This document shows, piece after piece, positions 14,212 to 56,369 of a DNA stretch of 64,000 nt. The stretch is from assembly GCA_017443405.1 (NCBI GenBank), contig JAFRXS010000208.1:625-64624 (forward strand). Direction: 5' to 3'. Made by a program: the position numbers and the translations under genes. The notes under the pieces were generated by a model. The model ran no database searches. It saw only the letters and a list, made by a program, of their open reading frames with translations, and was not told the origin of the DNA. Every line of letters begins with the position of its first letter. Within the stretch, counting starts at the first letter, position 1. This DNA comes from Clostridia bacterium. Lineage in GTDB: Bacteria; Bacillota; Clostridia; Oscillospirales; Acutalibacteraceae.

Positions 14212-14221
14212 GACTGACCGC

Positions 14222-14250
14222 TTGACATATACACGTTATCCGTGTATAAT
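14222..14250 (+). promoter_or_regulatory. sigma-A type promoter for higBA
   Basis: TTGACA (14222-14227), 17-nt spacer, TATAAT (14245-14250). The -10 box ends only 7 nt before the likely higB ATG. Confidence 0.6.
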
Positions 14251-14257
14251 ATGGATG

Positions 14258-14542: not shown

Positions 14543-14556
14543 GAGGCGGTGTGAAA

Positions 14557-14937: not shown

Positions 14938-14951
14938 GCCGCGTGTATAAT
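14923..14951 (+). promoter_or_regulatory. sigma-A type promoter for the symporter gene
   Basis: TTGACA (14923-14928, inside the hairpin loop), 17-nt spacer, TATAAT (14946-14951). A 12-nt palindrome CGCTTTAAAGCG lies at 14959-14970, just downstream. Confidence 0.55.
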
Positions 14952-15003
14952 AATTTAGCGCTTTAAAGCGTCTATTCGTTAAATCGTTTTCGGAGGCAAT
15001 CGG

Positions 15004-38078: not shown

Positions 38079-39328
38079 AAAAAGCTTTTGTCAAGCACCG
38101 GTACTCGGTCGGCGTATTCGCGTTCCTGCTGCTGCACTCTTTTCTCGTGTCGGGCGGAGCGAAGCCGTGGAGCAACGATTTTGTGACCTACTCGTTCCAC
38201 GCCGTGGATTTCTCCATGGGCTTCTGCACGCGCATACTGCCCGGAGCGGTGTATAAGCTCCTTGTCGGAAAATGGAGCATGGAAGCGGTCAACGCCTTTG
38301 ACTCCGTTTTTATGATACTGCTTTTCGCCGTTCTTTCCGTTTTCTGTGAGAAGCTCATCCTCGGCGTCGGGAAAAAAGACAGGCTCGCTTTTCTGCTTGT
38401 GGTACTGCTGTTCCTGACCGGTCCGTGCACCTTCCCGATGTACATTATCGAGCTCGGGATGATAGACGTCTGGTGGGTGTTCTTCACCGCCGCGGCGGTC
38501 GTTCTGCTGTCGTGCAGACGCCTGTTTCCGCTGGTTGTCCCGATAGGCGCTCTGTGCGTTACGATACACTTTTCGGCTATGTACACCTTCGTTCCGCTCA
38601 TAGTTCTGCTTATCCTATATAAATGTGCTTCGGAGCAAAATAAGAAAACAAAGGCTGCGCTTTTCTCCGTCGCCGTCCTTACGGCAGCGGCAGCCTGCGC
38701 GACGGCTGTCTACTTCCTTGTAAACGAAAAGAACAACCTCGTCTATACCCGCGAGGAGTTCGACGCCGTACTCGCTTCGCGCGGCGTGACGTTTTTCGAT
38801 TATTACGATTACGCTTTTTACGGTTTTATCTCGGACGCGCAGCCGCGCCTCGTGGAGGCGATGTCGTCATCGGAACCGGTATCTTTTATCCAGCGTGTCA
38901 TGCAGCAGATCAGCATTAATGCTTCCACTCTGGAATTCGCCACAAAGCTGTACGTACTCGTTCTGATGATCCCCGCCGTCGTTCTGCTTTTCGGATTTGT
39001 CTTTACTGCGGTGAAGGGCAGGAGCGGCAAAGCCGAAAAAGCCGTATTGCTTTCAGCTCCCGCGCTGTTCGTCGTCTCACTCGGCTTCGGCTGGCTGTTT
39101 TCGACTGACGTGATCAGATTCCTCGGTCACAGCTTCCTCGGTTTGTTCACATTCGTTATGTTCGTTATTTATATCGATAATAAAGACAGGAACGCGGAAA
39201 ACGGTCCGTCCGAAAACAAAGATCCCGCGTCGTATTTTACCGATGTTTTCCGGCGTATAGATCCGAAAATAACGTTCATTTACTTCGCGATGTACGTTTT
39301 GACGGTATGGGAACCGTACAGGACATAA
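38075..39328 (+). CDS. polytopic membrane protein, tandem paralog 4 of 4
   Basis: ORF 37994..39328. The ATG at 38075 (MKKAFVKHRYS) forms an ATGA overlap with the paralog 3 stop. Motifs: VDFSMGFCTRILPGAVY, TGPCT, GMIDVWW, HFSA and STDVIRFLGHS. Confidence 0.6.
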   Translation: MKKAFVKHRYSVGVFAFLLLHSFLVSGGAKPWSNDFVTYSFHAVDFSMGFCTRILPGAVYKLLVGKWSMEAVNAFDSVFMILLFAVLSVFCEKLILGVGKKDRLAFLLVVLLFLTGPCTFPMYIIELGMIDVWWVFFTAAAVVLLSCRRLFPLVVPIGALCVTIHFSAMYTFVPLIVLLILYKCASEQNKKTKAALFSVAVLTAAAACATAVYFLVNEKNNLVYTREEFDAVLASRGVTFFDYYDYAFYGFISDAQPRLVEAMSSSEPVSFIQRVMQQISINASTLEFATKLYVLVLMIPAVVLLFGFVFTAVKGRSGKAEKAVLLSAPALFVVSLGFGWLFSTDVIRFLGHSFLGLFTFVMFVIYIDNKDRNAENGPSENKDPASYFTDVFRRIDPKITFIYFAMYVLTVWEPYRT

Positions 39329-41144: not shown

Positions 41145-43067
41145 TCAGCGCCGCGGTATCCTTATCATATAACCGACGTCGCTTTCGGTCACCTCACAGT
41201 CATAGTTCGTTGTCCAGTATTTAAGCCGGTCTTTCGTCGGGTCGTTCACGTCAGGCCCGACCTCGAACATGCTGTCGACGAAATTGCCGTATTTATACCG
41301 CAGCACCGAAAGGTTCGTTATGTTGAAAAAGCCGCGGCACTCATATTTCGGTATATAAACATATTCCGGGAATTTATCCGGGTGCAGTTTCCAGTAAAGG
41401 AGCTGACGCGATTCGAAGTCCCTGTCCACGTACCACGTGCTGTAACAGGCGTAGGGTCTGTCGACGTAAAGATACAGCCACGCGTAATCGTGCACGTAGA
41501 ACGCGCCGTTCCCATTGTCCTTTATCGCGTCCATATCGTCCAGCAGCTTGTCGTAAATCTCCGCTGCCGAGCTTGTCGTCAGTATCCCCTTCATCGGTCC
41601 GCGGTCAAGTTTCGTGTCGAGCTTTTCATCGTTGAAATCGCCGTAGCGGTACTCAAAATAAGGGTACCGCGTTTCATATATGAAGGTACCGATCTCTCCG
41701 AGCGGCGCCGAGACGGCGACGAGACATAGAGCGACGACTGCTGCGCGGTTTAATAATATAATAGCTTTCCCTTTTGCGCTTTTTCCGCCCGCGTCTTCTC
41801 TTTCTTTATTGTCGGTCCTGATCTCGCCTATGATCTTTTCGATCATGATCAGCACCGCGGGGGCGACGAATACCCCGCCCAGCAGGAAGCCGAGAACATA
41901 AGCGTCCGATGAGATATCGAAAAGCTCGGAATACACGAAACCGCTGAGCAGCCAGAACAGCAGGGCTTTATTGTTTTTTTTGTCTTTAAGGAGCAGCCAC
42001 GCGAAAAGCCCGAACAGGAACAGGGGGATATAGCGGGGAATGGTCGTGACGAGCAGCCATTTCTCTGTCGCGCAGTCGAGATACAGCTTGTTTATATGGA
42101 TCAGGAAAACGATATTGAAAACGCCTGCGACGATCAGATAGACCGGTCTGCGTTTGAGCCTTTTTATATCAACGAGGACTATCAGGAAAAGAGCCGCTTC
42201 GATGATATAATAGACCGGACCCATGATATATACGGCGGTATACCAGTCATTTGCTATGAGGGTCTGAGGTCTGCCGGAAAGGACCGGGAAAATGTATTCG
42301 GAGTCCGTAAAGAAATTCGGAAGGGCTTCGATATACTCTTTGAGCGTTCCCCTTGTGAACATAAAGGTCAGGAAGACAGCTGCCGCAGCGGCGACGCCGG
42401 CTGTGACGAGAAGGAACGTCTTTAAGCTCAGCAGTCCCGGTTTTCTGCGGTACTTCGGGAAACACGCGCGGATAACGACCACGGCGGCGTATATGAAATA
42501 TACGACCGCGAGCAGCGGTTCGCTCAAGACCGCGCAGGCGGCGACGACTCCCGCGACGATATAGCCGGGCGTTCCGAGCGGCTTCCCTGCGAACAGGAGC
42601 GCGCAAAGTATCGCGCAGAACATGATGCTCTCGGTGTAATAGCAAAGATCGGGGACAAAGACGAAATGGCAGAAGGTCAGCGAGGCTATCAGCGCCGTTA
42701 TCCCGTGCTCGCGCAGCCGTATGAACAGAAAGACCGAAACCGCGAGCTGACAGCAGACGAACAGCCGACGCGCGTACAGCAGCATCCCTTCGGTTCCGAA
42801 CAAAGAGTAATATAGCTTTACCGGCAGGTATATGAACGGAGAGGAAAACTGAGATACGTGCCACTCGTCTATGAGCAGTCTGTCGCCGAAGAACATCCTG
42901 TGCGGGAAATTAAGATAAAAGGTCTCGTCTATATAACCGAGCCCGCGCCCTGCGAGGATGAACAAATAGACGGCGAGCGCGGTGAAGCAGACCGCCGCGA
43001 ACGGGTACAGCAGTTTTTTATCGTTTATCGCGGAGATGATGCCGTTGATCCGTTTATTTCGTTCCAT
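41145..43067 (-). CDS. GT-C-like polytopic membrane protein with C-terminal extracytoplasmic domain (paralog G1 of 6)
   Basis: A 640-aa protein. An Asp-Glu motif follows TM1 directly (GLGYIDETFYLNFPHRMFFGDRLLIDEWHVSQF). About 11 TM helices come next, then a roughly 200-aa soluble tail with GPMKGILT, WLYLYVD and PEYVYIP. Confidence 0.55.
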   Translation of the reverse strand: MERNKRINGIISAINDKKLLYPFAAVCFTALAVYLFILAGRGLGYIDETFYLNFPHRMFFGDRLLIDEWHVSQFSSPFIYLPVKLYYSLFGTEGMLLYARRLFVCCQLAVSVFLFIRLREHGITALIASLTFCHFVFVPDLCYYTESIMFCAILCALLFAGKPLGTPGYIVAGVVAACAVLSEPLLAVVYFIYAAVVVIRACFPKYRRKPGLLSLKTFLLVTAGVAAAAAVFLTFMFTRGTLKEYIEALPNFFTDSEYIFPVLSGRPQTLIANDWYTAVYIMGPVYYIIEAALFLIVLVDIKRLKRRPVYLIVAGVFNIVFLIHINKLYLDCATEKWLLVTTIPRYIPLFLFGLFAWLLLKDKKNNKALLFWLLSGFVYSELFDISSDAYVLGFLLGGVFVAPAVLIMIEKIIGEIRTDNKEREDAGGKSAKGKAIILLNRAAVVALCLVAVSAPLGEIGTFIYETRYPYFEYRYGDFNDEKLDTKLDRGPMKGILTTSSAAEIYDKLLDDMDAIKDNGNGAFYVHDYAWLYLYVDRPYACYSTWYVDRDFESRQLLYWKLHPDKFPEYVYIPKYECRGFFNITNLSVLRYKYGNFVDSMFEVGPDVNDPTKDRLKYWTTNYDCEVTESDVGYMIRIPRR

Positions 43068-43069
43068 TC

Positions 43070-44962
43070 CTATTTTTTCCTTATAACCTTGACCGTGTAT
43101 CCGACATCGCTTTGTGTGACCTCGCAGTCGAACAGGGAAAGTATGAGCCGGAGTCTTTCCGCAGCCTCTGACCCGTTGTCGAGGAAGCCCGAATAATAAA
43201 ACTTGGGGATGTAAACGTATTCCGGCGTTTTCTCGGGATTCAGCTCCCAGTAATCGATCTGCCTTGGGTCAAAATCTTCCGCGATGAACCAAGTTGCGTA
43301 ACAGGAATACGGTTTGTCTGTATAAAGGTATGCCCAGGCGAACAATTCGTAAACGTAAACGGGACCCGTCGCGTTTTCTCTGATAACGTCAAGGTCGGAA
43401 AGCATCTTATTATACCGGTCTCCCGTTTCCGGAAGAGTGTAGATCCCCTTGAAAGGACCGGCGGAGAGCTTGTACGACAGATCTGGTGAAGGTGACTTAT
43501 AAGCCCCGTTGTAAGCTGAAAAAGAATCGTCAAATTCCTCGGTCCTTTCGCTGACGTTCTCAAAAAGCAGAAAGTCTTTCTCGAACAGCAGGGAGGCAGC
43601 CTCGCAGACGGGGTGCGCCCAGATGAGGACGCATAGCAGCGCGCAGACGGCTTTTTTGACGGGAAAGCTTCGTTTTTTATCCTTATTTGCGTCCGCGGCG
43701 GCTTCCGCCGCGGATGCTCTTATTTCGTCGAGCAGAGCTTTCGCGAGTATGAAAACGGCGATATTCGATATGACTCCGCCGAGCATGCATACCACAAGAT
43801 AGTTTTCGGAGGAGACGTCCATCATCGCCGAATACAGTATACCCGCCGCGTAGAACGCAAAAAACCGTTTGTATTTGCTCTTGTTTTCGATCAGCAGACA
43901 GCAGAACGCGCCGAAGATGAAAAACGGAATATGCCTCCAGAAATACATGAGCTTCGAGGCGAAGCCCATTTTGATAAGTATGCAGGCATACGTCGCGATC
44001 GCCAAAACAGCCGCGGCGGTGATATAGACAAGTCTGTGCTTCAGCCTTTTTCGGTCGGCGAGGACGGCTGTGAACAGTACGGCGTCCGCTATGAAGAAAG
44101 GAAGCCAGATCTTTCCGAGGATGTCAAACAGATCGAGGCTGAACAGGTTCTGTTTTCCGCCGTTGAGGAGCGGGAACTGATACTCGGAGTCGGTAAAGAA
44201 ATTCGGCAGGGCGGCGAGGTATTCGCTCAAAGACCCTCTTGACAGAATAAATGCGAAAAACGCCGCGGCGGAAACAACGACTCCCGCGGCGATGAACAAA
44301 AACGGTTTAAGATCGAGCAGATAGAGCGGTTTTATTTTCTTCTTAAAAATGAGAGATACAATGACTGCTATGACGTAGATAAAAAAGAAAACCGCGAGCA
44401 GCGGCTCGCTGAGCACGGCGGCACCTATAAGAAGACCGGTAATAATCAGCGTGACGGGGCGTTTGGGCTCTTTTCCGGTGAACAGAAGCAGGCAGATAAG
44501 GGTGCACGACATAAGGCTCATCGTGTAATAGCTGAGAGCCGGGCAGTTCATTACGAGATAGTGGCAGTACAGTAGAGAGCCTGCGGCAGCCGCGAAGCCG
44601 TATTTCCGCAGACGGAAGAACGCGAACAGCGAGACCCCGAACTGCGCCGCGAGATACAGATATCTGAAAGCCAGAACGATCCCTTCGGTGCCGAACAGGG
44701 CGTAATAGATCCTGAACGGTATATAGATAAGCGGCGCCGCGAACTGCGACACGTGCCATTCCTCAATAAGCAGTCTGTCGCCGAAGAACAGTCTGTGGGG
44801 AAAGGTCAGATAGACGGCTTCGTCGACCGTTCCGAGTCCCCGGTGTATATACCACACCATATAGGCGGCGAGCAGAACAAATGCTGCCCCCGTTGCGATA
44901 TACAGAGACTTATCGCGAAGTGTCGACATGATCGATCCGTTTTTTCGGCCTTTTTCAGACAT
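43070..44962 (-). CDS. GT-C-like polytopic membrane protein (paralog G2 of 6)
   Basis: ORF 43070..45025. The ATG at 44962 (MSEKGRKNG) gives an 8-nt ATGTCTGA overlap with the upstream stop. Motifs: GLGTVDEAVYLTFPHRLFFGDRLLIEEWHVSQF, GPFKGIYT and PEYVYIP. Confidence 0.55.
   Translation of the reverse strand: MSEKGRKNGSIMSTLRDKSLYIATGAAFVLLAAYMVWYIHRGLGTVDEAVYLTFPHRLFFGDRLLIEEWHVSQFAAPLIYIPFRIYYALFGTEGIVLAFRYLYLAAQFGVSLFAFFRLRKYGFAAAAGSLLYCHYLVMNCPALSYYTMSLMSCTLICLLLFTGKEPKRPVTLIITGLLIGAAVLSEPLLAVFFFIYVIAVIVSLIFKKKIKPLYLLDLKPFLFIAAGVVVSAAAFFAFILSRGSLSEYLAALPNFFTDSEYQFPLLNGGKQNLFSLDLFDILGKIWLPFFIADAVLFTAVLADRKRLKHRLVYITAAAVLAIATYACILIKMGFASKLMYFWRHIPFFIFGAFCCLLIENKSKYKRFFAFYAAGILYSAMMDVSSENYLVVCMLGGVISNIAVFILAKALLDEIRASAAEAAADANKDKKRSFPVKKAVCALLCVLIWAHPVCEAASLLFEKDFLLFENVSERTEEFDDSFSAYNGAYKSPSPDLSYKLSAGPFKGIYTLPETGDRYNKMLSDLDVIRENATGPVYVYELFAWAYLYTDKPYSCYATWFIAEDFDPRQIDYWELNPEKTPEYVYIPKFYYSGFLDNGSEAAERLRLILSLFDCEVTQSDVGYTVKVIRKK
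43599..43655. repeat. 57-nt block identical to 45493..45549
   Basis: GCCTCGCAGACGGGGTGCGCCCAGATGAGGACGCATAGCAGCGCGCAGACGGCTTTT occurs in both G2 and G3, offset by 1894 nt. Confidence 0.9.
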
Positions 44963-46862
44963 TATATTTTCTCCCGAGGATCCTGATGGTATATCCGACT
45001 TCGCTCGTTTCGACCTCGCACTCAAACAAAGAAAGCGTTTTCTCCAGCCGCTCGGCAGCCTCCGGGTAGAAGTCGTGGAAACCCGAATGGTAGATTCTCG
45101 GTATGTATATGTATTCCGGCGATCTTTGAGGGTGCAGGTCCCAGTATTCTATCTGCCTCGTTTCGAAATCAAGCGGTATGAACCACGCGGTATAAGCGGA
45201 GTACGGCTTGTCAAGACTCATATACATCCACGAAAACAAGCCGAAAACATATACGGGGCCGGTCGCTTTATCGCGGATCGCGTTCAGATCCCTCAAAAGC
45301 GCGTCGTACTTCTCCGCCGCCTGAGGCAGGGTGTATATCCCCTTGAGCGGACCGGCGGTCAGCTTCTCAGACAGATCCGGCGACTCGCTGCCGTAAGCCC
45401 CTCCGTAAACCGAGAAGGAGTCGACGTACAGCTCGCTCCTGCCGCAGATGTTCTCAAACAGAAGAAAATCCTTTTCGAACGCAAGGGAGGCCGCCTCGCA
45501 GACGGGGTGCGCCCAGATGAGGACGCATAGCAGCGCGCAGACGGCTTTTGCCGGAATACGAAGGTTTTTGCGATTATTTATCTTTATTTCCGTATCCTGT
45601 CCGGACGCTTTTATCTCGTCGAGCAGTGCTTTTGCGAATATGAACACGGCGATATTCGATATGACTCCGCCGAGCATGCAGACCACAAGATAGTTTTCGG
45701 AGGAGACGTCCATCATCGCCGAATACGGTATCCCCGCCGCGTAAAAGGCGATAAGCCTTTTGTGTTCCTTTTTGTTTTCGAGCAGCAGGCAGCAGAACGC
45801 GCCGAAGATGAAAAGCGGAATGTGCCGCCAGAGGTACATCAGGCGCGACGAAACGCCCATCCGTATCAGTATGCAAATATACGTCGCGATCGCGAGAACG
45901 GCAGCAGCGGCGATATAGACGAGCCTGCGCTCAAGTCTTTTCCTGTCCGCGAGAACGGCGATGAACAGTACCGCGTCCGCGATAAAGAACGGCAGCCATA
46001 TCTTTGACAGGACGTTGAAAAGACCGGCGTCGAAAAGGTTCTGTCCGCCGCCGCTGAGCAGCGGGAAACGGTATTCGGAGTCGGTGAAGAAGTTCGGCAA
46101 GGCGGAGAGATATTCGCTCAGAGAACCCCTTGAAAGCAAAAAAGCGAAAAAAGCCGCGGCGGAAACAACGATTCCCGCGGTGATGAATAAAAACGATTTA
46201 AGATCGAGCAGATAGAGCGGTTTTCTTTTCTTCTTGAGTATCAGAGATACCGCGACTGCGATAACGTAGATGAAATAAAACACGGCGAGCAGCGGCTCGC
46301 TGAGTACCGCCGCGCCGGTGAGCAGACCGGTAATCAAAAGCGTGAGCGGTTTCTTTGGCTCGTCGCCCGTGAACAGAAGCAGGCAGATGAGCGTGCACGA
46401 CATCAGGCTCATCGTGTAGTAGCTCAGAGCCGGGCAGTTCATCACGGTGTAGCGGCAGTACATCAGAGAAGCAACGGCGGCGATGAAACCGTATTTCCTC
46501 AGCCGGAAAAACGCGAAAAGCGAAACGCCGAACTGCGCTATAAGATACAGATACCTGAAGAAAAGTATTATGCCCTCCGTACCGCGCAGCGAGTAATAGA
46601 TCCTGAACGGAAGATACACAAGCGGTGCGGAGAACTGCGACACGTGCCACTCGTCTATCAGCAGTCTGTCGCCCTGAAGGAGCCTATGCGCGACGTTCAG
46701 GTACATGCTTTCGTCCATCGCGCCCATCCCGCGATGGATATACCATACCATATAAGCGGCGAGAAGCGCGAAGCAGCCGAGTGAGATCCCGTAAAACAAA
46801 GCGGCGTTCCGCCGCGTGAGCGGAGCGCGTAATTTTTCGATCGTCGCGCTGTTTTTTGTCAT
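44955..46862 (-). CDS. GT-C-like polytopic membrane protein (paralog G3 of 6)
   Basis: GMGAMDESMYLNVAHRLLQGDRLLIDEWHVSQF, GPLKGIYT and PEYIYIP. It is very close to G2 through the TM core. Confidence 0.55.
   Translation of the reverse strand: MTKNSATIEKLRAPLTRRNAALFYGISLGCFALLAAYMVWYIHRGMGAMDESMYLNVAHRLLQGDRLLIDEWHVSQFSAPLVYLPFRIYYSLRGTEGIILFFRYLYLIAQFGVSLFAFFRLRKYGFIAAVASLMYCRYTVMNCPALSYYTMSLMSCTLICLLLFTGDEPKKPLTLLITGLLTGAAVLSEPLLAVFYFIYVIAVAVSLILKKKRKPLYLLDLKSFLFITAGIVVSAAAFFAFLLSRGSLSEYLSALPNFFTDSEYRFPLLSGGGQNLFDAGLFNVLSKIWLPFFIADAVLFIAVLADRKRLERRLVYIAAAAVLAIATYICILIRMGVSSRLMYLWRHIPLFIFGAFCCLLLENKKEHKRLIAFYAAGIPYSAMMDVSSENYLVVCMLGGVISNIAVFIFAKALLDEIKASGQDTEIKINNRKNLRIPAKAVCALLCVLIWAHPVCEAASLAFEKDFLLFENICGRSELYVDSFSVYGGAYGSESPDLSEKLTAGPLKGIYTLPQAAEKYDALLRDLNAIRDKATGPVYVFGLFSWMYMSLDKPYSAYTAWFIPLDFETRQIEYWDLHPQRSPEYIYIPRIYHSGFHDFYPEAAERLEKTLSLFECEVETSEVGYTIRILGRKYNV
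45493..45549. repeat. 57-nt block identical to 43599..43655
   Basis: Exact copy of the block at 43599..43655. Confidence 0.9.
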
Positions 46863-46863
46863 A

Positions 46864-47976
46864 TCAGCCTCCGAAGCGGTCGCAGGCGTCTATTATCCGT
46901 TCGATCTCTTCACGGGTAAGCTCCGGGAACAGCGGCAGCGTGACGCAGTGCGCGGCGTGATACTCGCTGACGCCCAGCGGAAAGCGGGGAGCGGGAACGT
47001 CCCCGAACGCTTTCATCAGATGGCAGGGGAGCGGGTAATGGACGCGGCAGTCTATGCCGAGATCGCTCATGTGCCGAAGGAAACGGTCGCGTTCGCTGAC
47101 GTGTATGACGTACAGATGCCGCGCGGGGGAGGAATCCTCATTGTATTTCTGTTTCACGATAAGCGGATTCGTTATGCCGCGGTCGTAGATCCCGCTTATC
47201 TCCCGGCGTCGTTGGAGAGCCCCGTCGAGATGCCTAAGTTTGACTGAGAGAATTGCCGCCTGGATATCGTCCATCCTCATATTGAAGCCGACGTCGGAAT
47301 GATCTCCGTCCGCCGTTGTGCAATGCGTCTTGAACGAGTTTATAAGCTTGATCTTCTCACGGTCGCCGGATACGACGCAGCCCGCGTCCCCGCACGCGCC
47401 GAGATTTTTGGTCGGATAAAAGCTGAAGCAGCCCAGTTCACCGAGCGAGCCGGTCTTCTTGCCCTTATACAGCGCGCCGTGAGCCTGGGCGCAGTCCTCA
47501 ACGACGGGTATGCCGTGCGCGTCGGCTATGCCTTTCACCCGGTCAAAGTCGAACGGCACGCCGTAGAGATGCACGCCGACTATCGCCTTTGTCGCTTTCG
47601 TTATCCTTTTTTCGAGATCGGCGGGATCGATCTCCCACGTGTCGGGGTCTATGTCGCAGAATACCGGCGTCGCTCCGTTGTAAACGGCGCCCCACGCCGT
47701 CGCGACAAAGGTATTCGAGGGTATTATGACTTCGTCGCCTTCCCCTATGCCGAGCGCCTTGAGCGCAAGGAAGACCGCGTCGGTGCCGTTGTCGACGGCC
47801 GCTGCGTATGAAACCCCGCAGAAAGCCGCGAAGTCCTTTTCAAATCCCTTTACGAAGCGCCCGTTGCAGAAGTCGGCCGTCCCGAGGACTTCTCCCGCGG
47901 CCCTGACGTATTCGTCGTAAAGGCGCCTGTGCTGCCTGCTCAGGTCGCAGAACGGTATGGGTACTTTATTCATCAT
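46864..47976 (-). CDS. DegT/DnrJ/EryC1/StrS-family PLP-dependent sugar aminotransferase
   Basis: IPFCDL, AVDNGTDAVFLALKALGIGEGDEVIIPSNTFVATAW, VEDCAQAHGA, and FSFYPTKNLGACGDAG carrying the PLP Lys. Confidence 0.85.
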   Translation of the reverse strand: MMNKVPIPFCDLSRQHRRLYDEYVRAAGEVLGTADFCNGRFVKGFEKDFAAFCGVSYAAAVDNGTDAVFLALKALGIGEGDEVIIPSNTFVATAWGAVYNGATPVFCDIDPDTWEIDPADLEKRITKATKAIVGVHLYGVPFDFDRVKGIADAHGIPVVEDCAQAHGALYKGKKTGSLGELGCFSFYPTKNLGACGDAGCVVSGDREKIKLINSFKTHCTTADGDHSDVGFNMRMDDIQAAILSVKLRHLDGALQRRREISGIYDRGITNPLIVKQKYNEDSSPARHLYVIHVSERDRFLRHMSDLGIDCRVHYPLPCHLMKAFGDVPAPRFPLGVSEYHAAHCVTLPLFPELTREEIERIIDACDRFGG

Positions 47977-48916
47977 TCAACAGACTTTCCTCGACAATAT
48001 AACGCGGTCTGTTTTTTGAGTTCAGACCCGAAGAGTAAATATATTCCCCGAGTATCCTCAGCGCGAAAAGAAGCATCGCCGCGACAAGGAAAACGCAGGA
48101 TAAAACGAGAGCGGTCGAGGGGAAACCGCCGCGGCAGACTTTGACGAGCGAACAGATGAAGCCGGCGACCGACAGGAGAAAGCTCGCAAGGCTCATAAGA
48201 CCGATAAGGCGTATCGGCGCGCTGCTGTAGGAGGTGACCGCGCCGACGGCCATGCGGAAAAGCGATTTGAAATTATAGTGCGAGCTCCCCGCCTCGCGCG
48301 GCTTTCTGTCGTGGCAGACCACGCTGTGCTTAAAGCCCAGGAGCGGCACCTCGGCGGGCAGGAAAACGTCCGATCCGCCTCGGTCCAGCAGCGCTTCGAC
48401 CGCTCTTTTGCTCATCAGCCTGTACTGTGAATGCTCGCGGACGAATTCTATTCCGCAAAAGTCGATAAGACGGTAAAATGCACCGGACGTAAGGCGTGTC
48501 ATGAGCGGTTCGTTTCCGCGCGAGCGCCTGACGCCGTAGACTATCTCGCTGCCCTTTGCGTATTCTCTCAGCATTTCGTCTATTGCGTCCGTGCCGTCCT
48601 GAAGGTCGGCGTCAGTCGTGATCACGACGTCGGCGAAGCTTATCGCCGCCTCCATGCCCGCGAGGTTCGCGTTCTGCTCCCCGCTGTTGTGCGCCAGGCT
48701 TATGCCGGTGAACAAACTGTCGTTCTCGGACGCTTCACGGATGAGCTCCCACGTGCGGTCGGTCGAACAGTCGTTGACCATAAGGACGCGGCTCTTCGGA
48801 GAAACCAGCCCCTCGCCGATGAGCGCGCGGAGCTTTTCTTGCATGGCCGGAATGGTCAGCGGCAGCACTTCCGCCTCGTTATAGCAGGGGAGAACGATAC
48901 ACAGAGTATCCGCCAA
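47966..48916 (-). CDS. polyprenyl-phosphate glycosyltransferase, GT2 of the GtrB/ArnC/CsbB type
   Basis: IVLPCYNEAEVL, VNDCSTDRT, TTDADLQD and YRLMSKRAV are followed by two C-terminal TM helices and LGEYI...K.RPRYIVEE. This is the typical bactoprenol-P sugar synthase architecture. Confidence 0.8.
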   Translation of the reverse strand: MADTLCIVLPCYNEAEVLPLTIPAMQEKLRALIGEGLVSPKSRVLMVNDCSTDRTWELIREASENDSLFTGISLAHNSGEQNANLAGMEAAISFADVVITTDADLQDGTDAIDEMLREYAKGSEIVYGVRRSRGNEPLMTRLTSGAFYRLIDFCGIEFVREHSQYRLMSKRAVEALLDRGGSDVFLPAEVPLLGFKHSVVCHDRKPREAGSSHYNFKSLFRMAVGAVTSYSSAPIRLIGLMSLASFLLSVAGFICSLVKVCRGGFPSTALVLSCVFLVAAMLLFALRILGEYIYSSGLNSKNRPRYIVEESLLNDE

Positions 48917-48931
48917 GAGAGATCACGTCCT

Positions 48932-50416
48932 TTATTTCAGATCGTATTTTTTGAGGATGAGAGGGAAGAAATAGCGGTTGACGAAAACGCTCAGGAACTG
49001 ATAGGCGGCGGCAAACGCCTCGGAGAAAAAGTATATGACGCCGTGGCCGAACAGACCCTTTACCGCGTCGGTGACGGTCTTTACCGCGAAGCTGTGCTCC
49101 TGCTCTTTGCCGTCGGCGCTCCCCTTTGCCCAGAAGCTCTGCCACAGGAAGAACGCCCTGACGACCTTGAGGTCGCGGTTCGGTATCTCCGAATAGTTTT
49201 TAAGGACCTTGTAAAGCGAAAACGCTCTTGCTTCCCTTTTGAGATCGAAGGTCCTCGCGTGGAGTTTTTCATAGTCCGGCAGGTTGTTGTACATGGCGGA
49301 CCGCGCGAAGGGCAGGTAAAAATTGAACTGGTACTGGGAAGTCCTTATCTTTTTCGCGAAGTCGACCGTCTGCTTGAAATCCTCCGTCTTCTCGCCCGGC
49401 AGGGCGATGATGAACGCCGTGACGGTATTGAGCCCCGCGTCGTAAGCGGCGTTGACGGAAGCGGCAGCGGCGTCGAGGTCCAGCCCCTTGCAAACCGTTT
49501 TCTGCATGCGCGGGCTGCCCGTTTCTATGCCGATGAAGACCCAGCGGCAGCCGACGGAATACATCAGATCGTAATCCTCTCTGCTGAAGATGTCCGCCCT
49601 GGTCTGGCAGCCCCATTTGATGTCGAGCCCGGAGTCGCGCAGCTTTTCGCAGAACTCTTTGAGCCACGCTCTGCCGGTGCCGAAGCACTCGTCGGCGAAA
49701 TAAGCCGCGCGCATATCGTATCCATCATGAAGCATCTTAAGCTCTGCGATAACGTCGTCTATCGGCCGCAGCCGCTGCCTGCACAGATGGAAATACGGGT
49801 TGTAGCAGAAGGTGCAGGACCCCGGGCAGCCCTTTGAGGCGTAGACGTGAAGGCCGTTTTTGCAGCCGTAAAAGGTCTCGAAATACTTGGCGACGGGCAC
49901 GAGCGACCAGTCGAGCACGCCGAGTTCGGCAAGATCCAGGAACGGGGCGCGTCGGTTCGTGACCATTTTGCCGTCCTTTAAATAAGCTGCCGAGCCGACG
50001 TCCTCTATCTTCCTTTTGCCCTCGTAGTACTCTATAATGTGGAGCCACGAGATCTCGCCCTCGCCGATCGAAACTATGTCGCCTATGCGGTTGTGAAGCA
50101 TCGATTCGGGCATCATGGAAGCCACCGGACCGCCGGCTACGACGTGCGCGCCGTGCTCTCTCGCCATTGAGGCTATGAACACCGCATCCTCGAGTCCCAG
50201 AGCGGATACCGTGGATATCCCGACTATATCGGGTCGCCTGAGCGTTAGCTCCTCCTTAAGGTCGAGGTGGTTCATCATTCGGTCGCAGATCCACGCTTCG
50301 TGCCCCCGCCGGTTCAGAAAGGTACACAACGAAATGGCCCCCAGCGGAGCGGCCGGCGAACCTGTGTATTTTTCTGCCATGGGGAGAACAAAGAGTATCT
50401 TCACGTTGACGTCCAA
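48932..50416 (-). CDS. B12-binding-domain radical SAM protein, short class (rSAM-A2)
   Basis: PLGAISLCTFLNRRGHEAWICD, PDIVGISTVS, AHVVAGGPVAS and ASKGCPGSCTFC. The start is uncertain (TTG at 50416 or GTG at 50404), and no strong RBS is visible. Confidence 0.8.
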   Translation of the reverse strand: MDVNVKILFVLPMAEKYTGSPAAPLGAISLCTFLNRRGHEAWICDRMMNHLDLKEELTLRRPDIVGISTVSALGLEDAVFIASMAREHGAHVVAGGPVASMMPESMLHNRIGDIVSIGEGEISWLHIIEYYEGKRKIEDVGSAAYLKDGKMVTNRRAPFLDLAELGVLDWSLVPVAKYFETFYGCKNGLHVYASKGCPGSCTFCYNPYFHLCRQRLRPIDDVIAELKMLHDGYDMRAAYFADECFGTGRAWLKEFCEKLRDSGLDIKWGCQTRADIFSREDYDLMYSVGCRWVFIGIETGSPRMQKTVCKGLDLDAAAASVNAAYDAGLNTVTAFIIALPGEKTEDFKQTVDFAKKIRTSQYQFNFYLPFARSAMYNNLPDYEKLHARTFDLKREARAFSLYKVLKNYSEIPNRDLKVVRAFFLWQSFWAKGSADGKEQEHSFAVKTVTDAVKGLFGHGVIYFFSEAFAAAYQFLSVFVNRYFFPLILKKYDLK

Positions 50417-50427
50417 AATAAAATAAC

Positions 50428-50455
50428 TTGACTATAATTCAATTATCATTATAAT
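50428..50455 (+). promoter_or_regulatory. consensus sigma-A promoter for operon 3 (CotH side)
   Basis: TTGACT (50428-50433), 16-nt spacer, TATAAT (50450-50455). Confidence 0.6.
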
Positions 50456-50476
50456 ATATACAGAAGTTCATGTCAA
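50448..50476 (-). promoter_or_regulatory. consensus sigma-A promoter for operon 2 (rSAM-A2 side)
   Basis: On the minus strand: TTGACA (complement 50471-50476), 17-nt spacer, TATAAT (complement 50448-50453). Its -10 overlaps the plus-strand -10 within ATTATAAT. Confidence 0.6.
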
Positions 50477-50534
50477 TATAAATCACCCTTAACGCTGCAG
50501 CGCGACGCGAAGAAAACCGATCACACCGAACGGT

Positions 50535-52547
50535 GTGTGGCGATATGAAAAACGCCGAACAGCGCCCCGGGCGGAACGCTCTGTCGTTGTGAAGAATCAG
50601 CGGTCGCAGCGGACAAAAGGCTCCGCTCCGGTAAAAGACCGGCGACCGCCCGAAGCCGAGAGTCCAGACTTGAAGAAAAAAAGACCGACAGCGATGATAA
50701 TCGCCGCCGCGGCGCTGGTTCTCGCGGCGGCTATCGCCGTCGTCGTGTTTTTTTACTTTTACGGCAAAAACAGCCGCTCTCCGACGATCCTAGTGAATCC
50801 CTACGGCGGCGAACCTGATTCGCCTGATACGATATCGGTGAGGAACGAGGGCGATAGCTACCGTCTCGATCTCCCCGCCGACGCCGACCGGAAAAACCTT
50901 AAAGTCTGGTGGTATCCCGAGGAACAGAGCATGAGCGTCAACGGGAAGCAGCTCGCCTACGGCGAGTCGACCTCCGTTTTCGGCGTCAGGGACAGCTACT
51001 CGCTAACGTTCGGAGGTGAAAACTATTCCCTTAAACTGGAGCAGTCGCTCGACCTCCCCGCCGTGTTTCTTGTGACGGACTCACGAAAAACAGAATACCT
51101 TTTGGCCGACAAGGACAACAAGGAGCCCGGGCGCGCGGTCGTGCGCGAGAACGGCGAAGCCGTGATCGACGCGGAGCTCGAGCATATCAAGGGCAGGGGG
51201 AACCACTGGGACGAATACGGCGCGCCGGCAAGACTCGCCAGACCCTACAACATTAAATTTAAGGAAAAAACAGAGCTTCTGGGTATGGCGTCCGCCAAAA
51301 AGTGGGTGCTTAAGCCTACAGGCATCGTGGAGGACAACAGCGCCTACGCTCTGGCGCGCCGCATGGGGCTAAGCTTTACCCCCGAGCTGCGCAGCGCGGA
51401 CGTCTACCTCAACAACGTCTATCTCGGAAAGTATCAGATAAGCTCGAGCGTCCAGGTCTCCGGCAGCAGGGTCGACATCGCCGACCTTAAGGAACTTAAC
51501 GAAAAAGCGAACCCTTCCGTCGACTTTAAAACGCTTCCCAAAAGCGGCACGAGCGCGCCAGATGACCTGAGTCCCGGCTGCAGAAAATGGGTGGAGGCGC
51601 CGAACGACCCGGACGATATCACCGGCGGGTACCTGATCGAGGTCGACGATTCCGACCATTACGCCGAGGACGTTTCCGGTTTCATCACCGACCGCGGATT
51701 CTCCCTGGTGATCAAGGACCCAGAATACGCAACGCGCTCCGAGGTTGAGTATATCGCCGACTACTGGCAGGAAGCAGAGGACGCGCTGTATTCCGAGACC
51801 GGATATAATTCTCTGGGAAAGCATTACGGCGAGTATTTTGATATGGATTCTCTTGTAAGGATATATATCCTTCAGGAGATAACCAAAAACGCCGACTCCG
51901 GCGTCACGAGCTGCTTTTTCTACAAGGACGCGGGCGGAAAGCTTTTCGCCGGTCCCGCCTGGGATTACGACGCCGCGCTCGGCCTCGAGTACGAATACGA
52001 GGGGCTCGATCTCAACGATCCCGGGACCTGGTGGGTCAACCAGCGCGTGCGCGATTGGTGGGACGACTATCCGCTGCTGTTCTGCGCGCTTTATTCCCGC
52101 GAGGATTTCAGGTCGGCGGTGTTCGATATGTGGGAGGAAAACGCCGACGCCTGGCTGAGCGAAGATTATTTCTCGGAGCTTTACGCCTTCGGGGAGTCAC
52201 TTGCCGCGACGAGCGCCGGCGTGTTTTCGCAGAGAGGCGCGGCGTATATTGAGTCGCGGGACAGGGTGATCCGGTTCCTGAAAGAAAGAAAAACTGCTCT
52301 CGATCTGGGGTTTTCGCCCGACGCGGCTTACGTCCGCTACGACGCCGGCGGCGGGACCGGGCACATCTACGAGACCGCCATGTACAGGATCGGGGACGGG
52401 TACACGCTTAAGGAAAACGCATATGAAAAGGACGGCTCCGAATTTAAGGGCTGGAGCACGGTCCCCGGCGGAGAAGCAGAGTATCAGCCGGGCGACAGGA
52501 CGACCCTCGAAACGGGATATACCGTTTTTTACGCAGTTTGGGAATGA
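50535..52547 (+). CDS. CotH-family (atypical kinase fold) protein with N-terminal membrane anchor and C-terminal Listeria/Bacteroides-type repeat
   Basis: The TM anchor is MIIAAAALVLAAAIAVVVFFYF. The CotH-like core includes KPYNIKF, KKWVLKP, DVYLNNVYLGKYQ, YLIEVD and FFYKDAGGKLFAGPAWDYD. The C-terminal segment is YDAGGGTG...YEKDGSEFKGWSTVPGG...TVFYAVWE. The start is uncertain: TTG at 50670 or ATG at 50694 is more plausible than 50535. Confidence 0.65.
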   Translation: MWRYEKRRTAPRAERSVVVKNQRSQRTKGSAPVKDRRPPEAESPDLKKKRPTAMIIAAAALVLAAAIAVVVFFYFYGKNSRSPTILVNPYGGEPDSPDTISVRNEGDSYRLDLPADADRKNLKVWWYPEEQSMSVNGKQLAYGESTSVFGVRDSYSLTFGGENYSLKLEQSLDLPAVFLVTDSRKTEYLLADKDNKEPGRAVVRENGEAVIDAELEHIKGRGNHWDEYGAPARLARPYNIKFKEKTELLGMASAKKWVLKPTGIVEDNSAYALARRMGLSFTPELRSADVYLNNVYLGKYQISSSVQVSGSRVDIADLKELNEKANPSVDFKTLPKSGTSAPDDLSPGCRKWVEAPNDPDDITGGYLIEVDDSDHYAEDVSGFITDRGFSLVIKDPEYATRSEVEYIADYWQEAEDALYSETGYNSLGKHYGEYFDMDSLVRIYILQEITKNADSGVTSCFFYKDAGGKLFAGPAWDYDAALGLEYEYEGLDLNDPGTWWVNQRVRDWWDDYPLLFCALYSREDFRSAVFDMWEENADAWLSEDYFSELYAFGESLAATSAGVFSQRGAAYIESRDRVIRFLKERKTALDLGFSPDAAYVRYDAGGGTGHIYETAMYRIGDGYTLKENAYEKDGSEFKGWSTVPGGEAEYQPGDRTTLETGYTVFYAVWE

Positions 52548-52550
52548 CAG

Positions 52551-54461
52551 ATGAAAAAAACAGCCGCGGGAAAGAAGATCGCAACCGTATCCGCCCTCGC
52601 CTTATGCGCGGCGGCTGTTGCTTTTTGTCTTTTTTTCTTTTTGCGCGGCGGCTCCGACCCGCTTGAAAACCTCCGGGTGAATCCGTACGGCGGCTCGAAA
52701 AACGACGCCGATACCGTCGTATGGAACAAGATAGGGGAGAGTTATTATCTCTTTCTTCCGTCGGACGCAGACGTTTCCTCGCTGCGCGTGTTTTTCCGGC
52801 CCTTCACGAAAGTGACCGTTGACGGCGACCCCGTTGTCAGCGGCAGAGAGACGGACGTCTTTTCCGGCGGCGGCAGGTTTACTCTCGAGTGCCGCGGGAC
52901 GGAGTATCCTCTCACGGTCATGCGGTCCGAAAACATCCCCGCCGTGTTCATCACCACCGATACCGGCGGACTTGCGTATATCCACAAGGACAAGGACAAC
53001 AAAGTCCCCGGGAGGCTCATCGTCCGTGAAGGCGGGCGTATCACGCTCGACGAGAGGCTCAGCCGCATAAAAATGCGGGGCAACAGCTGGGAGGAAACGC
53101 CTGAGGATTATCTCAAGGCGTATAACATAAAATTCGAGACCCGGCAATCCCTGCTCGGGCTCGGCAAAGCGAAAAAATGGTCGCTTTTGTACTCCGAGGT
53201 CGAGCGAAATCAGTTCGCTCTCGGTCTGGCTAAACGCGCCGGGATAGAGTTTACCCCGGACTGCGCGCCCGCCGATCTTTATATCGACGGCGACTACCGC
53301 GGGACTTATCTTTTCTGTGAGAGCGTGCAGATCGCGAAGAACCGCGTGGACATCCCCGATCTCAAGGATGCGAACGAAGCCGCCAATCCCGGCGTCGACA
53401 TAAAAAAGTGTGCTCTTGCGGGCGACAGGAACAGCGAATCCACAATACCCGGATCTCGAAAGTGGGTCGAAATACCGAACGATCCGTCAAATATCAGCGG
53501 GGGATATCTGATAGAACTTGACTCGTACGAAAGGTACTGCGAGGAGATCTCCGGATTCGTTTCGAGCCTTTCTACGCCCATAGTCATAAAATCCCCCGAG
53601 TACGCCTCTGAAGCCGAGGTCGATTATATTTCGGATTACTGGCAGGAAGCGGAGGACGCTCTGTACTCCGATACGGGCTATAACTCTCAGGGAGGCTACT
53701 ACTCCGATTATTTCGATCTTGATTCGCTCGTTAAAGTCTTTATCGTACAGGAGTTCTGCATGAACGGCGACGCCGGGGGAACAAGCTGCTTTTTCTACAA
53801 AAAGCCGGACGGAAAGCTTTACGCAGGGCCGGTATGGGATTACAACGGAGCGTTGGGTGCGGAAAAGATTGATTACGAGGGCTTGAAGCTCGGAGACCCG
53901 ACGACCTGGTGGACGGTCCAGCGTGTTCGCGAAGAGGTGGACGACGTGCCGTTCTTCTTCGGTATGCTTTTCCGTCACGGCGATTTCCGCGAAGCGGTGC
54001 AAAAAGCTTGGCCCGATTTCTCGTCTGTCTATCTCGACGGCGCGGCGGAAAGTGTCGACGCTTCGGGCGCTTCCCTGTCGGCTTCGTCCGTCATGAAGGC
54101 TATGCGCTGGCAACTGTACGGCTCTGTCGCCACGCCCGAGCTGACCGGCAGCATCTACCGCTCCAAGGTCGTCGCTCTGAGAAAATATATAACCGCCAGG
54201 ACCGCGAACCTCGACAGGGGCTTCTCGGCGGATTCGGCTTATTTCAGATACGATCCCAACGGCGGACGCGGCCACGTTTACGATTCTCCGATACTTTCCG
54301 CCGGGGAAAAGATAAAGCTGTCGGGTAACGCTTATTCAAAAGACGGGGCGGTCTTTATCGGTTGGAATACCGAGGCGGACGGAAGCGGTACGGATTGCTT
54401 CCCGGGTGAAGAGGTGACTCTTGACGCCGGGTATACGGTGTTCTACGCCCAATGGAAATAA
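52551..54461 (+). CDS. CotH-family protein, paralog 2, same architecture
   Basis: The anchor is IATVSALALCAAAVAFCLFFFL. Core motifs are KAYNIKF, KKWSLLY, DLYIDGDYRGTYL, YLIELD and FFYKKPDGKLYAGPVWDYN. The C-terminal segment is YDPNGGRG...YSKDGAVFIGWNTEADGSG...TVFYAQWK. Confidence 0.65.
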   Translation: MKKTAAGKKIATVSALALCAAAVAFCLFFFLRGGSDPLENLRVNPYGGSKNDADTVVWNKIGESYYLFLPSDADVSSLRVFFRPFTKVTVDGDPVVSGRETDVFSGGGRFTLECRGTEYPLTVMRSENIPAVFITTDTGGLAYIHKDKDNKVPGRLIVREGGRITLDERLSRIKMRGNSWEETPEDYLKAYNIKFETRQSLLGLGKAKKWSLLYSEVERNQFALGLAKRAGIEFTPDCAPADLYIDGDYRGTYLFCESVQIAKNRVDIPDLKDANEAANPGVDIKKCALAGDRNSESTIPGSRKWVEIPNDPSNISGGYLIELDSYERYCEEISGFVSSLSTPIVIKSPEYASEAEVDYISDYWQEAEDALYSDTGYNSQGGYYSDYFDLDSLVKVFIVQEFCMNGDAGGTSCFFYKKPDGKLYAGPVWDYNGALGAEKIDYEGLKLGDPTTWWTVQRVREEVDDVPFFFGMLFRHGDFREAVQKAWPDFSSVYLDGAAESVDASGASLSASSVMKAMRWQLYGSVATPELTGSIYRSKVVALRKYITARTANLDRGFSADSAYFRYDPNGGRGHVYDSPILSAGEKIKLSGNAYSKDGAVFIGWNTEADGSGTDCFPGEEVTLDAGYTVFYAQWK

Positions 54462-54531
54462 ACAGGTATCTGTCGGATCGTATCATTATTGAATATCAGT
54501 GTTTTTCTGTAATATCACGGAGGATGCGTCA

Positions 54532-56346: not shown

Positions 56347-56369
56347 GACGTCTGCCCGGGGAGGCGAAT

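Follow-up and report, generated by a model that had tools for sequence, protein, structure and literature searches.

A clostridial GT2–DegT–GT-C operon headed by a B12-type radical SAM gene, with no recognisable sugar dehydrogenase or dehydratase gene nearby

Gene content of the operon

We analysed a 64-kb (64,000-nucleotide) stretch of DNA from a Clostridia bacterium of the family Acutalibacteraceae (assembly GCA_017443405.1, contig JAFRXS010000208.1, positions 625 to 64,624), which is called the window as a whole and from whose first letter coordinates are counted unless another locus is named. On its minus strand, six tightly packed genes at 41145-50416 form an operon that encodes a radical S-adenosylmethionine (SAM) enzyme with a B12-binding-type domain (rSAM-A2, hereafter A2), a family 2 glycosyltransferase (GT2), a DegT-family aminotransferase and three membrane proteins with a GT-C glycosyltransferase fold. 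There is good support for reading this operon as the donor-and-transfer arm of an extracytoplasmic GtrB/GT-C glycosylation system in which an amino sugar is handled and new GT-C families serve as transferases. The genes of the operon, its promoter-like site and the adjacent divergent features are as follows.

50448-50476, minus strand: promoter-like site TTGACA-17-TATAAT, 12/12 sigma-70 consensus, heading the rSAM-A2 operon
48932-50416, minus strand: rSAM-A2, radical SAM enzyme of class B that carries a B12-binding-type Rossmann domain at the N-terminus (from Pfam, NCBIfam, PDB and AlphaFold2 comparisons)
47966-48916, minus strand: GT2 of GtrB/ArnC architecture, 316 amino acids (aa), overlapping the DegT start by 11 nucleotides (nt)
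46864-47976, minus strand: DegT/DnrJ/EryC1 sugar aminotransferase (PF01041, 4.3e-108, 362 bits against a cutoff of 19.8)
44955-46862, minus strand: GT-C-fold paralog 1, with about 12 transmembrane (TM) helices, a C-terminal soluble domain of about 170 aa and a conserved DE in the first loop
43070-45025, minus strand: GT-C-fold paralog 2, 72% identical to paralog 1
41145-43067, minus strand: GT-C-fold paralog 3, 42% identical to paralog 1, the final gene of the operon
50428-50455, plus strand: divergent 11/12 sigma-70 site for the CotH operon
50535-54461, plus strand: CotH-family pair, each with an N-terminal TM helix, opening the divergent operon

From A2 onward, the junctions of the operon are spaced by +15, −11, +1, −71 and +2 nt. 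The 71-nt overlap probably reflects a mis-called start of GT-C-fold paralog 2, which was set too far upstream; its true start is probably an internal Met, and this would remove the overlap. Because the 12/12 promoter consensus lies just upstream of A2, we place the start of the operon at that gene. The 119-bp intergenic region at 50416-50535 carries two near-perfect sigma-70 promoters that stand back to back and overlap (12/12 on the minus strand and 11/12 on the plus strand), and no obvious Shine-Dalgarno sequence was seen ahead of either of the first genes that flank it. An Rfam scan of the window detected no cobalamin or SAM riboswitch and no other RNA family. A metagenome contig, L001, keeps the gene order of the operon at 79-88% identity and the layout of its surroundings at 79-94%. 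On the divergent side, the first CotH protein (50535-52547) was scanned against Pfam and gave a sub-threshold C-terminal match to Flg_new (PF09479, Listeria-Bacteroides repeat); the second was named by its similarity to the first and by a tblastn identity of 68% to the Pfam-annotated CotH orthologue of L001.

The GT2 matched Pfam PF00535 (1.7e-18) and aligned over its full length to GtrB (5EKP; 4e-30, residues 5-310) and to ArnC structures (1e-21 to 1e-22). Its TTDADLQD motif starts at residue 100, with DAD at residues 102-104 (within nt 48596-48619), and two hydrophobic helices lie near the C-terminus at residues ~237-255 and 270-288. A GT-A domain with DxD, two C-terminal TM helices and the full-length alignment together give it a GtrB-type architecture, from which we predict an enzyme of the polyprenyl-phosphate sugar synthase type. 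Its best NCBIfam neighbour was PgfS, at 145 bits against a cutoff of 500.

In the DegT protein, the FSFYPTKNLG motif begins at residue 184 (nt 47398-47427) and supplies the catalytic lysine, Lys190, in place of the histidine of the dehydratase subgroup, which together with the PF01041 match assigns it to the DegT family of aminotransferases. It is predicted to be soluble, with no membrane segment. The nearest solved structures were 7B0D (9e-94), QdtB (2e-84), DesV (1e-82), WlaRG (9e-73) and WbpE (1.5e-64), and we take QdtB, DesV, WlaRG and WbpE all to be C-3 aminotransferases. The best NCBIfam model was that of the C-4 enzyme PseC (239 bits against a cutoff of 423); among solved relatives, the C-3 enzymes came first. 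Since the DegT protein is nearest to C-3 enzymes, its missing partner would more likely be a 3-dehydrogenase, or a dehydratase with an isomerase, than an ArnA-like enzyme.

The three ~640 aa proteins downstream of DegT had no Pfam or NCBIfam match, including none to PMT or PMT_2. We modelled one of them with AlphaFold2 from an alignment of 33 homologues (predicted local distance difference test score, pLDDT, 87.7; predicted TM-score, pTM, 0.90). The 13 best Foldseek matches of this model were all GT-C enzymes (PglB, ArnT, AftA, AglB and STT3; probability 0.99-1.00, TM-score ~0.4), and Pmt4 followed at rank 16 with a probability of 0.98. ArnT (5F15) matched at E 8.9e-5 with TM-scores of 0.41-0.46, and PglB and AftA matched equally well. 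D50/E51 are nearly invariant in the family alignment, and the polytopic fold with an acidic loop motif identifies these proteins as GT-C-like. The family comprises 34 clusters among 5.8 billion proteins, yet the window holds six paralogs. Three homologues (P0126, P0128 and P0129) are fused to an Acyl_transf_3 domain.

The original prediction for this locus had described an operon opening with rSAM-A2 and continuing with a GT2 that carries TTDADLQD and two C-terminal TM helices, a DegT aminotransferase with the FSFYPTKNLG lysine and three GT-C-like proteins. All of these assignments were borne out, that of the GT-C-like proteins at the level of the fold. It had also called the module Arn-like, and here only the donor logic of DegT, GT2 and GT-C stood. 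Three protein superfamilies of the Arn pathway do occur in one operon, which would fit an orthologous system making undecaprenyl-phosphate-linked 4-amino-4-deoxy-L-arabinose (L-Ara4N), but the ArnB model (PRK11658) scored 198.8 bits against a cutoff of 631 and the ArnC model (PRK10714) 92.4 against 529; counting PgfS, such models fell 3-6 fold below their cutoffs. The DegT protein is far closer to QdtB-type enzymes (1e-84 to 1e-94) than to ArnB structures (1e-48 to 1e-51), no ArnA, ArnD or ArnE/F was found among the open reading frames (ORFs) of the window with Pfam and NCBIfam, and the GT-C proteins lack a PMT/ArnT Pfam match. Moreover, to judge from the source and its relatives, the host appears to belong to the Gram-positive-type Clostridia (Oscillospirales), in which lipid A would not be expected. 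True Arn orthology, which has hardly any probability left, was excluded on the ArnB and ArnC scores and the absence of ArnA, ArnD and ArnE/F.

The radical SAM enzyme at the head of the operon

A2, for which TTG 50416 and GTG 50404 are the candidate start codons, matched the Pfam models for B12-binding (PF02310; 2.9e-13, 50.1 bits against a cutoff of 32.1) and Radical_SAM (PF04055; 3.8e-19, 69.9 bits), and its CxxxCxxC motif occupies residues 197-204 (nt 49805-49828). A B12-binding Rossmann domain joined to a CxxxCxxC core places it in class B of the radical SAM enzymes. Its best sequence matches among solved structures were MgmA/QCMT (9CCB, 5e-22), which is a glutamine C-methyltransferase (PMC12931638), and AprD4 (3.5e-21, over the core only). 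The top NCBIfam neighbours were the MgmA-type methyltransferase, ApyD and the P-methyltransferase PhpK, with scores far below the family cutoffs. An AlphaFold2 model of A2 (pLDDT 88.6) was matched by Foldseek to MgmA (4e-23), OxsB, AprD4 (1e-20), TsrM and CysS, and AprD4 gave the highest TM-scores to the model (0.66/0.71). Fold and family cannot choose between methylation and keto formation for A2. We tentatively regard it as a cobalamin-dependent tailoring enzyme of the methyltransferase type, with the oxidant of the pathway encoded elsewhere, at a little under even odds.

BtrN had been put forward in the original prediction as the precedent for sugar oxidation by this enzyme. A2 showed no SPASM or Fer4_12 Pfam match, and BtrN was neither among its sequence matches nor among the 50 best Foldseek matches listed. 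Across the A2 family alignment, the only invariant cysteines are the three of CxxxCxxC, and auxiliary-cluster cysteines are lacking. Because there are no conserved cysteines beyond the SAM-cluster triad, dehydrogenation of the BtrN type is unsupported, and we rejected this mechanism for A2 on the lack of a twitch/SPASM auxiliary cluster. A more fitting precedent for keto formation is AprD4, which shares the fold of A2 and makes a sugar ketone.

Six B12-type radical SAM paralogs, A2 among them, lie in a supercluster of ~35 kb (26253-62673), of which the operon is one arm. Three of these paralogs are of ~490 aa (A1-A3) and three are KedN5-like proteins of ~640 aa; the latter matched the KedN5 family of C-methyltransferases at 1e-65 to 1e-72, far below the family cutoff. 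A scan of species-representative genomes gave ~70 full-length loci of the ~490 aa family (29-41% identity), mostly in metagenome-assembled genomes (MAGs) of Acutalibacteraceae and other Oscillospirales from the gut. Most of these loci are arrays of several ~490 aa and several ~640 aa genes around a short GT2. DegT together with the 316 aa GT2 occurred within 10 kb in only three loci, namely L009, L024 and, from a separate look-up, L001, and more than 60 loci had no DegT. As most loci lack DegT, the radical SAM family is not tied to transamination.

We also built a distance-based tree of the radical SAM proteins with 200 bootstraps. L024, L084 and L132 share a DegT-coupled B12 radical SAM paralog (200/200) whose start codons overlap the DegT stop. 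The A2 pair of the window and L001 grouped with this paralog in 0/200 bootstraps; its branch is long and lies close to 'solo' radical SAM genes from other genomes, whose neighbourhoods are not conserved between genomes and so are uninformative on function. The idea that A2 is a dedicated partner of DegT was therefore not sustained, given the six paralogs, the more than 60 loci without DegT and the failure of the DegT-adjacent radical SAM proteins to group together.

Related cassettes and the missing keto-forming enzyme

We compared every sizeable ORF of the window with Pfam and found no short-chain dehydrogenase/reductase (SDR) of the epimerase-dehydratase kind, no Gfo/Idh/MocA protein and no UDP-sugar dehydrogenase. 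The absence of a sugar dehydrogenase or dehydratase, which had been predicted for the locus alone, was confirmed for the whole 64 kb and extends to the related GT2-DegT loci described below. One explanation is that A2 itself forms the carbonyl, by abstracting hydrogen from a carbinol carbon of a nucleoside-diphosphate- or undecaprenyl-phosphate-linked hexose, after which DegT would aminate the product. The chemistry could be an AprD4-like 1,2-diol dehydration to a deoxy-keto sugar or a net two-electron oxidation, and A2 would then be a non-orthologous replacement for the flavin adenine dinucleotide (FAD) oxidoreductase found in sister cassettes. We consider this explanation possible, if on the unlikely side.

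GT2 and DegT lie next to each other, or with no more than one small gene between them, in the window and in L001, L009, L024, L082, L084, L085/86 and L132, with identities of 43-83% for GT2 and 45-79% for DegT; the pair is a conserved two-gene cassette. At L037, the same GT2 occurs without DegT and in the company of six GT-C-like genes, a nucleotidyltransferase and an SDR epimerase. Because L037 swaps DegT for other genes, the sugar-tailoring genes next to this GT2 appear to be exchangeable. By gene context, the closest relatives of the DegT protein (45-59% identity) are of two types, here called rSAM and DAO. A metagenome scan for DegT by exact query peptides returned only relatives of ≤44% identity from unrelated environments, three of which were used as outgroups.

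In the rSAM type, to which the window and the seven loci named with it belong (L082 being a partial locus), DegT stands by the ~316 aa GtrB-like GT2 in a neighbourhood of B12-type radical SAM and GT-C-like genes. None of these eight loci has an SDR, Gfo/Idh/MocA or DAO gene. The DAO type, which is widespread and the commoner of the two, is represented by five independent cassettes (L083, L087/88, L089/90, L133 and L134) from Lachnospiraceae and other Clostridia, in the order FAD oxidoreductase (PF01266, ~380 aa), GT2 (~313-320 aa), GT2 (~241-256 aa) and DegT, mostly followed by GT-C; in L089, three further genes stand between the two GT2 genes. The GT-C protein is PMT_2 or GT_STM0557_N in L087-L090 and L133; Glucos_trans_II lies further downstream in L083, and none was seen in L134. 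Neither a radical SAM gene nor an oxidase of the nicotinamide adenine dinucleotide (NAD) type acting on sugars was found in the DAO-type cassettes. The most compact of them, L133, consists of five genes flanked by housekeeping genes. DegT proteins of the DAO type are 47-51% identical to that of the window, and their GT2s only 22-26% identical to the window GT2. In L133, the copy of the cassette in which this was examined, the 313 aa GT2 lacks DxD but carries GtrB-like TM helices, whereas the short GT2 has DxD but no clear TM helix; the pair may be a split enzyme.

The two types share further neighbours. A CotH gene product with a TM helix occurs beside DegT cassettes in the window, L001 and L009 (rSAM type) and in L087/88 and L089 (DAO type), which suggests that CotH is functionally linked to this kind of glycosylation. 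VTC and DUF4956 genes lie near the DAO cassettes of L087/88, L089 and L134.

A subclade of the rSAM type, comprising L024, L084, L085 and L132, also encodes a radical SAM protein of ~395-436 aa without a B12 domain. Copies of this twitch-like radical SAM gene were located as follows, in the coordinates of each locus.

L024, 4657-5865: twitch-like radical SAM gene
L084, 14832-16019: twitch-like radical SAM gene
L085, 15301-16506: twitch-like radical SAM gene
L132, 3809-5119: twitch-like radical SAM gene
L050, ~14950-16120: twitch-like radical SAM gene

These proteins have CxxxCxxC and a conserved C-terminal cysteine cluster and gave weak matches to BtrN (E 0.07), BlsE, MoaA and GDGT-MAS. In the DegT subclade with which it co-occurs, the protein is a candidate sugar dehydrogenase. 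Since this subclade has a twitch-like radical SAM protein as well, a B12 radical SAM protein next to DegT need not be the oxidant.

The position of these genes is among the points that speak for keto formation by A2. In L132, the twitch-like radical SAM gene lies directly upstream of GT2, in the position of A2 in the window, whereas the window and L001 have no twitch-like radical SAM gene and only A2 at that position; theirs is the only lineage with A2 and the only one shown to be without the twitch-like gene. The distribution is also complementary, as 5/5 DAO cassettes have a PF01266 head and no radical SAM, and 8/8 rSAM loci have no DAO, with no NAD-type enzyme in any of these loci. For A2, AprD4 ranks with the best sequence matches and is the best structural superposition, and the DegT protein has its nearest solved relatives among C-3 aminotransferases, enzymes that in every case depend on a dedicated oxidase or isomerase for the 3-keto substrate.

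The weight of the distribution is limited, however, by descent. The DegT proteins of the DAO and rSAM types form separate clades, and the split of five against eight contexts therefore amounts to about one evolutionary switch, not twelve independent observations. A Fisher-type reading of 5/5 against 0/8 as independent samples was rejected for the same reason, that the contexts track two DegT clades. Further points against keto formation by A2 are that characterised class B enzymes are mostly methyltransferases, that the B12-binding domain of A2 is recognisable whereas AprD4 is stated to bind no cobalamin (PMC12931638), that A2 has no auxiliary-cluster cysteines for BtrN-type dehydrogenation and that its family mostly occurs without DegT. 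The source MAG is also incomplete. Of the suggestion that the radical SAM enzyme carries out the oxidation, the position, the distribution and the lack of a conventional oxidase thus remain in favour; the six paralogs, the methyltransferase relatives and the count of about one switch tell against it. The alternative that it would C-methylate the sugar is no less likely than oxidation.

A different order of events would place oxidation and transamination after GT2, on the lipid-linked sugar, in a DprE1-like manner. The oxidant would then be an unrecognised protein of the supercluster, such as a membrane protein without a Pfam match, and the role of A2 would be unrelated. Sister cassettes do pair the oxidoreductase with two GT2s and not with nucleotide-sugar enzymes, there are precedents for modification of lipid-linked sugars before GT-C transfer (PMC11194591), and several window proteins have no assignable family. 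Against this, the DegT protein is soluble with no membrane segment, nucleotide sugars or small soluble compounds are the substrates of those solved relatives for which one is named, and no redox cofactor motif was detected in the family-less window proteins. We regard this order of events as improbable.

Proposed function of the operon

Our favoured reading, to which we give a probability of roughly 45% as a whole, is that the six-gene operon would serve as the donor-and-transfer arm of a GtrB/GT-C three-component system for extracytoplasmic glycosylation inside the ~35-kb envelope-glycan supercluster. DegT would first aminate a keto sugar, most likely a 3-keto hexose derivative. The 316 aa GT2 would then load the sugar onto undecaprenyl phosphate at the inner face of the membrane and, after flipping, the GT-C-fold paralogs would pass it to one or more envelope acceptors. 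A2, like the five other supercluster paralogs, would be a B12 enzyme of the methyltransferase type that tailors the sugar, possibly in its lipid-linked form. The keto step would be provided by a gene outside the contig, encoding an FAD oxidoreductase or a twitch-type radical SAM enzyme, as in sister cassettes, or a housekeeping enzyme. Gene identities, folds, operon structure and comparative distribution are observations, whereas the substrates, the sequence of reactions and what A2 does chemically are inferred.

Tailoring by A2 is favoured by MgmA as its best solved match, by the KedN5-like ~640 aa paralogs, by a family that mostly occurs without DegT and by the lack of extra cysteines. Several observations weigh against the proposal that tailoring is its role and that the oxidant is unlinked. 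The A2 model superposes on the keto-forming AprD4 as well as on any methyltransferase, and no conventional oxidase occurs in any of the eight related GT2-DegT loci. The sister DegT clade always has its own FAD oxidoreductase, even in the compact L133 cassette among housekeeping genes, and that the DAO oxidoreductase travels with DegT argues that the keto substrate is made by the cassette and is not a free core metabolite. The window spans the whole supercluster, yet it contains no DAO and no twitch-like radical SAM gene, and A2 is a long-branch paralog found only in the lineage without the twitch-like gene. We weighted the readings of the mechanism by the prior that class B enzymes are methyltransferases, by the five sister paralogs and by the positional and distributional evidence.

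A broader proposal can be built on keto formation by the B12-domain enzyme. In strict anaerobes, the B12-domain radical SAM protein would replace the FAD or NAD oxidoreductase and make the sugar carbonyl, perhaps on an undecaprenyl-phosphate-linked sugar, for DegT, and the B12 radical SAM paralogs that Acutalibacteraceae carry in arrays around polyprenyl-phosphate GT2 genes would modify monosaccharides on their lipid carrier, ahead of transfer by the new GT-C family. This proposal we hold to be doubtful.

The surrounding supercluster

Outside the operon and the CotH pair, the supercluster contains the following genes.

26253-27764, plus strand: rSAM-A1
~27779-29695, plus strand: rSAM-B1, KedN5-like
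29685-30410, plus strand: short GT2, similar to AglJ and other archaeal dolichyl-phosphate (Dol-P) hexose synthases
30407-32338, plus strand: rSAM-B2
32335-34245, plus strand: rSAM-B3
34288-39328, plus strand: four paralogous polytopic membrane proteins, ~420-444 aa
after these four paralogs, up to 41078, plus strand: two polytopic membrane proteins, 288 and 301 aa, without assignable family
54499-60054, plus strand: three further GT-C-fold paralogs (615, 615 and 622 aa), 22-25% identical to paralog 1
60051-61517, plus strand: rSAM-A3, B12-type, of a 200/200-supported clade found near GT2_316 orthologues in L001 and L037
61546-62673, minus strand: membrane acyltransferase (Acyl_transf_3/HGSNAT_cat)

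The ORF of rSAM-B1 was called from 27458, which appears to be too far upstream; a TTG at 27779, behind a ribosome-binding site (AAGAGGGAG), is the likelier start. The family of four ~420-444 aa proteins shows, by hhalign profile-profile comparison (probability 91.6%, E 8e-7), a distant relationship to the N-terminal half of the GT-C-like family. It has an invariant Asp in loop 1, one homologue gave a weak PMT_2 match, and these proteins may be truncated GT-C enzymes.

Genes for the cobalamin-dependent methionine synthase MetH and for methylenetetrahydrofolate reductase (22715-26042, minus strand) immediately precede the first radical SAM operon and are divergent from it. They could supply methyl groups or SAM to the cluster, or their position could be due to chance. 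Elsewhere in the window, we noted a HigB-like toxin with a helix-turn-helix antitoxin partner (14210-14850, plus strand) and a 736 aa protein with CHAP and dockerin domains (10563-12773, plus strand), whose dockerin fits a cellulosome-related Oscillospirales host.

Similar arrays recur in dozens of Acutalibacteraceae MAGs, with examples at L004, L021, L025, L026, L030, L034, L046 and L053; in them, between three and six ~490 aa and between three and eight KedN5-like ~640 aa B12-type radical SAM paralogs lie around a short GT2 resembling Dol-P hexose synthases. An HddA-like sugar kinase of the GHMP family stands beside radical SAM arrays at L001 (166-1143), L019, L028, L033, L038, L041, L043, L044, L047 and L055. 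In several loci, a nucleotidyltransferase gene adjoins this kinase gene, and the two are fused into one 664 aa protein at L085 (9443-11437). The combination hints at a salvage-type route to a nucleotide sugar.

Novelty and implications

In the usual view, the keto precursor of a bacterial envelope amino sugar comes from a nucleotide sugar, by NAD-dependent oxidation or 4,6-dehydration, and is then transaminated. An entire clade of DegT-GT2 cassettes from gut and rumen Clostridia lacks this NAD or dehydratase step and has an FAD oxidoreductase, a twitch-type radical SAM protein or a B12-type radical SAM protein instead. Our literature searches found no description of an rSAM- or DAO-type cassette, nor of a cobalamin radical SAM methylase acting on envelope sugars. 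The nearest idea in print is that remodelling of lipid-linked sugars can precede GT-C transfer, in some cases with FAD oxidoreductases and several GT-C enzymes (PMC11194591). The system described here would be a three-component glycosylation system with unprecedented tailoring enzymes and new GT-C families.

Naming the carbonyl-forming enzyme and its carrier would define a new branch of amino-sugar biosynthesis. It would also assign a role, for the first time, to two large and unstudied groups, namely the Acutalibacteraceae radical SAM arrays and a pair of GT-C-fold families that lack a Pfam model. If A2 were the keto-former, this would be a new route to amino (deoxy) sugars of the cell envelope in strict anaerobes. 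The system can be tested with three or four recombinant proteins.

Comparison with known systems

The GtrA/GtrB/GtrC systems (GtrB of Synechocystis, 5EKP; Gram-positive CsbB/YfhO and PgfS/PgfM) share with the window the architecture of the GT2 and the downstream polytopic proteins of GT-C fold that are the presumed transferases. The window differs in that, in place of a single GT-C protein, it has six to ten GT-C-like paralogs whose families lack a Pfam model, and in embedding a DegT aminotransferase and B12-type radical SAM enzymes. No GtrA-family flippase was found in the scanned ORFs, and the tight packing leaves no space for an unscanned small gene inside the operon. The Arn pathway, which places L-Ara4N on lipid A, has the same logic of a DegT enzyme, a GT2 that loads undecaprenyl phosphate and GT-C transfer outside the membrane. 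However, the window DegT is nearest to the C-3 aminotransferases, the oxidative decarboxylase/formyltransferase ArnA, ArnD and ArnE/F are absent, and the host is a member of the Clostridia.

C-3 amination is known from the pairs WbpB/WbpE, GnnA/GnnB, QdtA/QdtB and NtdC/NtdA. In these, the aminotransferase is encoded beside an NAD-dependent dehydrogenase or a 4,6-dehydratase with an isomerase, whereas the window DegT and its eight closest genomic relatives have no such gene. The DAO-GT2-GT2-DegT-GT-C cassette is like the window in its DegT, its GtrB-like GT2, mostly its GT-C protein and, in L087-L089, its CotH; it differs in its PF01266 head and in having no radical SAM gene.

With regard to the radical SAM enzymes, BtrN of the butirosin pathway is a twitch-domain enzyme with an auxiliary cluster and resembles, at E 0.07, only the ~400 aa radical SAM protein of related loci. 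AprD4, which acts with AprD3 in the apramycin pathway, shares its fold with A2 and, as a 1,2-diol dehydratase, produces a ketone on an aminoglycoside sugar. A2 keeps a B12-binding domain that Pfam recognises, whereas AprD4 does not bind cobalamin, according to a review (PMC12931638). Among the cobalamin radical SAM methyltransferases (MgmA/QCMT 9CCB, TsrM, CysS and KedN5), MgmA is the best match of A2 both in sequence and by Foldseek E-value. C-methylation of sugars by such enzymes is known from GenK and GenD1. Compared with the cobalamin methyltransferases, A2 would differ in its substrate, an envelope sugar or a sugar linked to polyprenyl phosphate.

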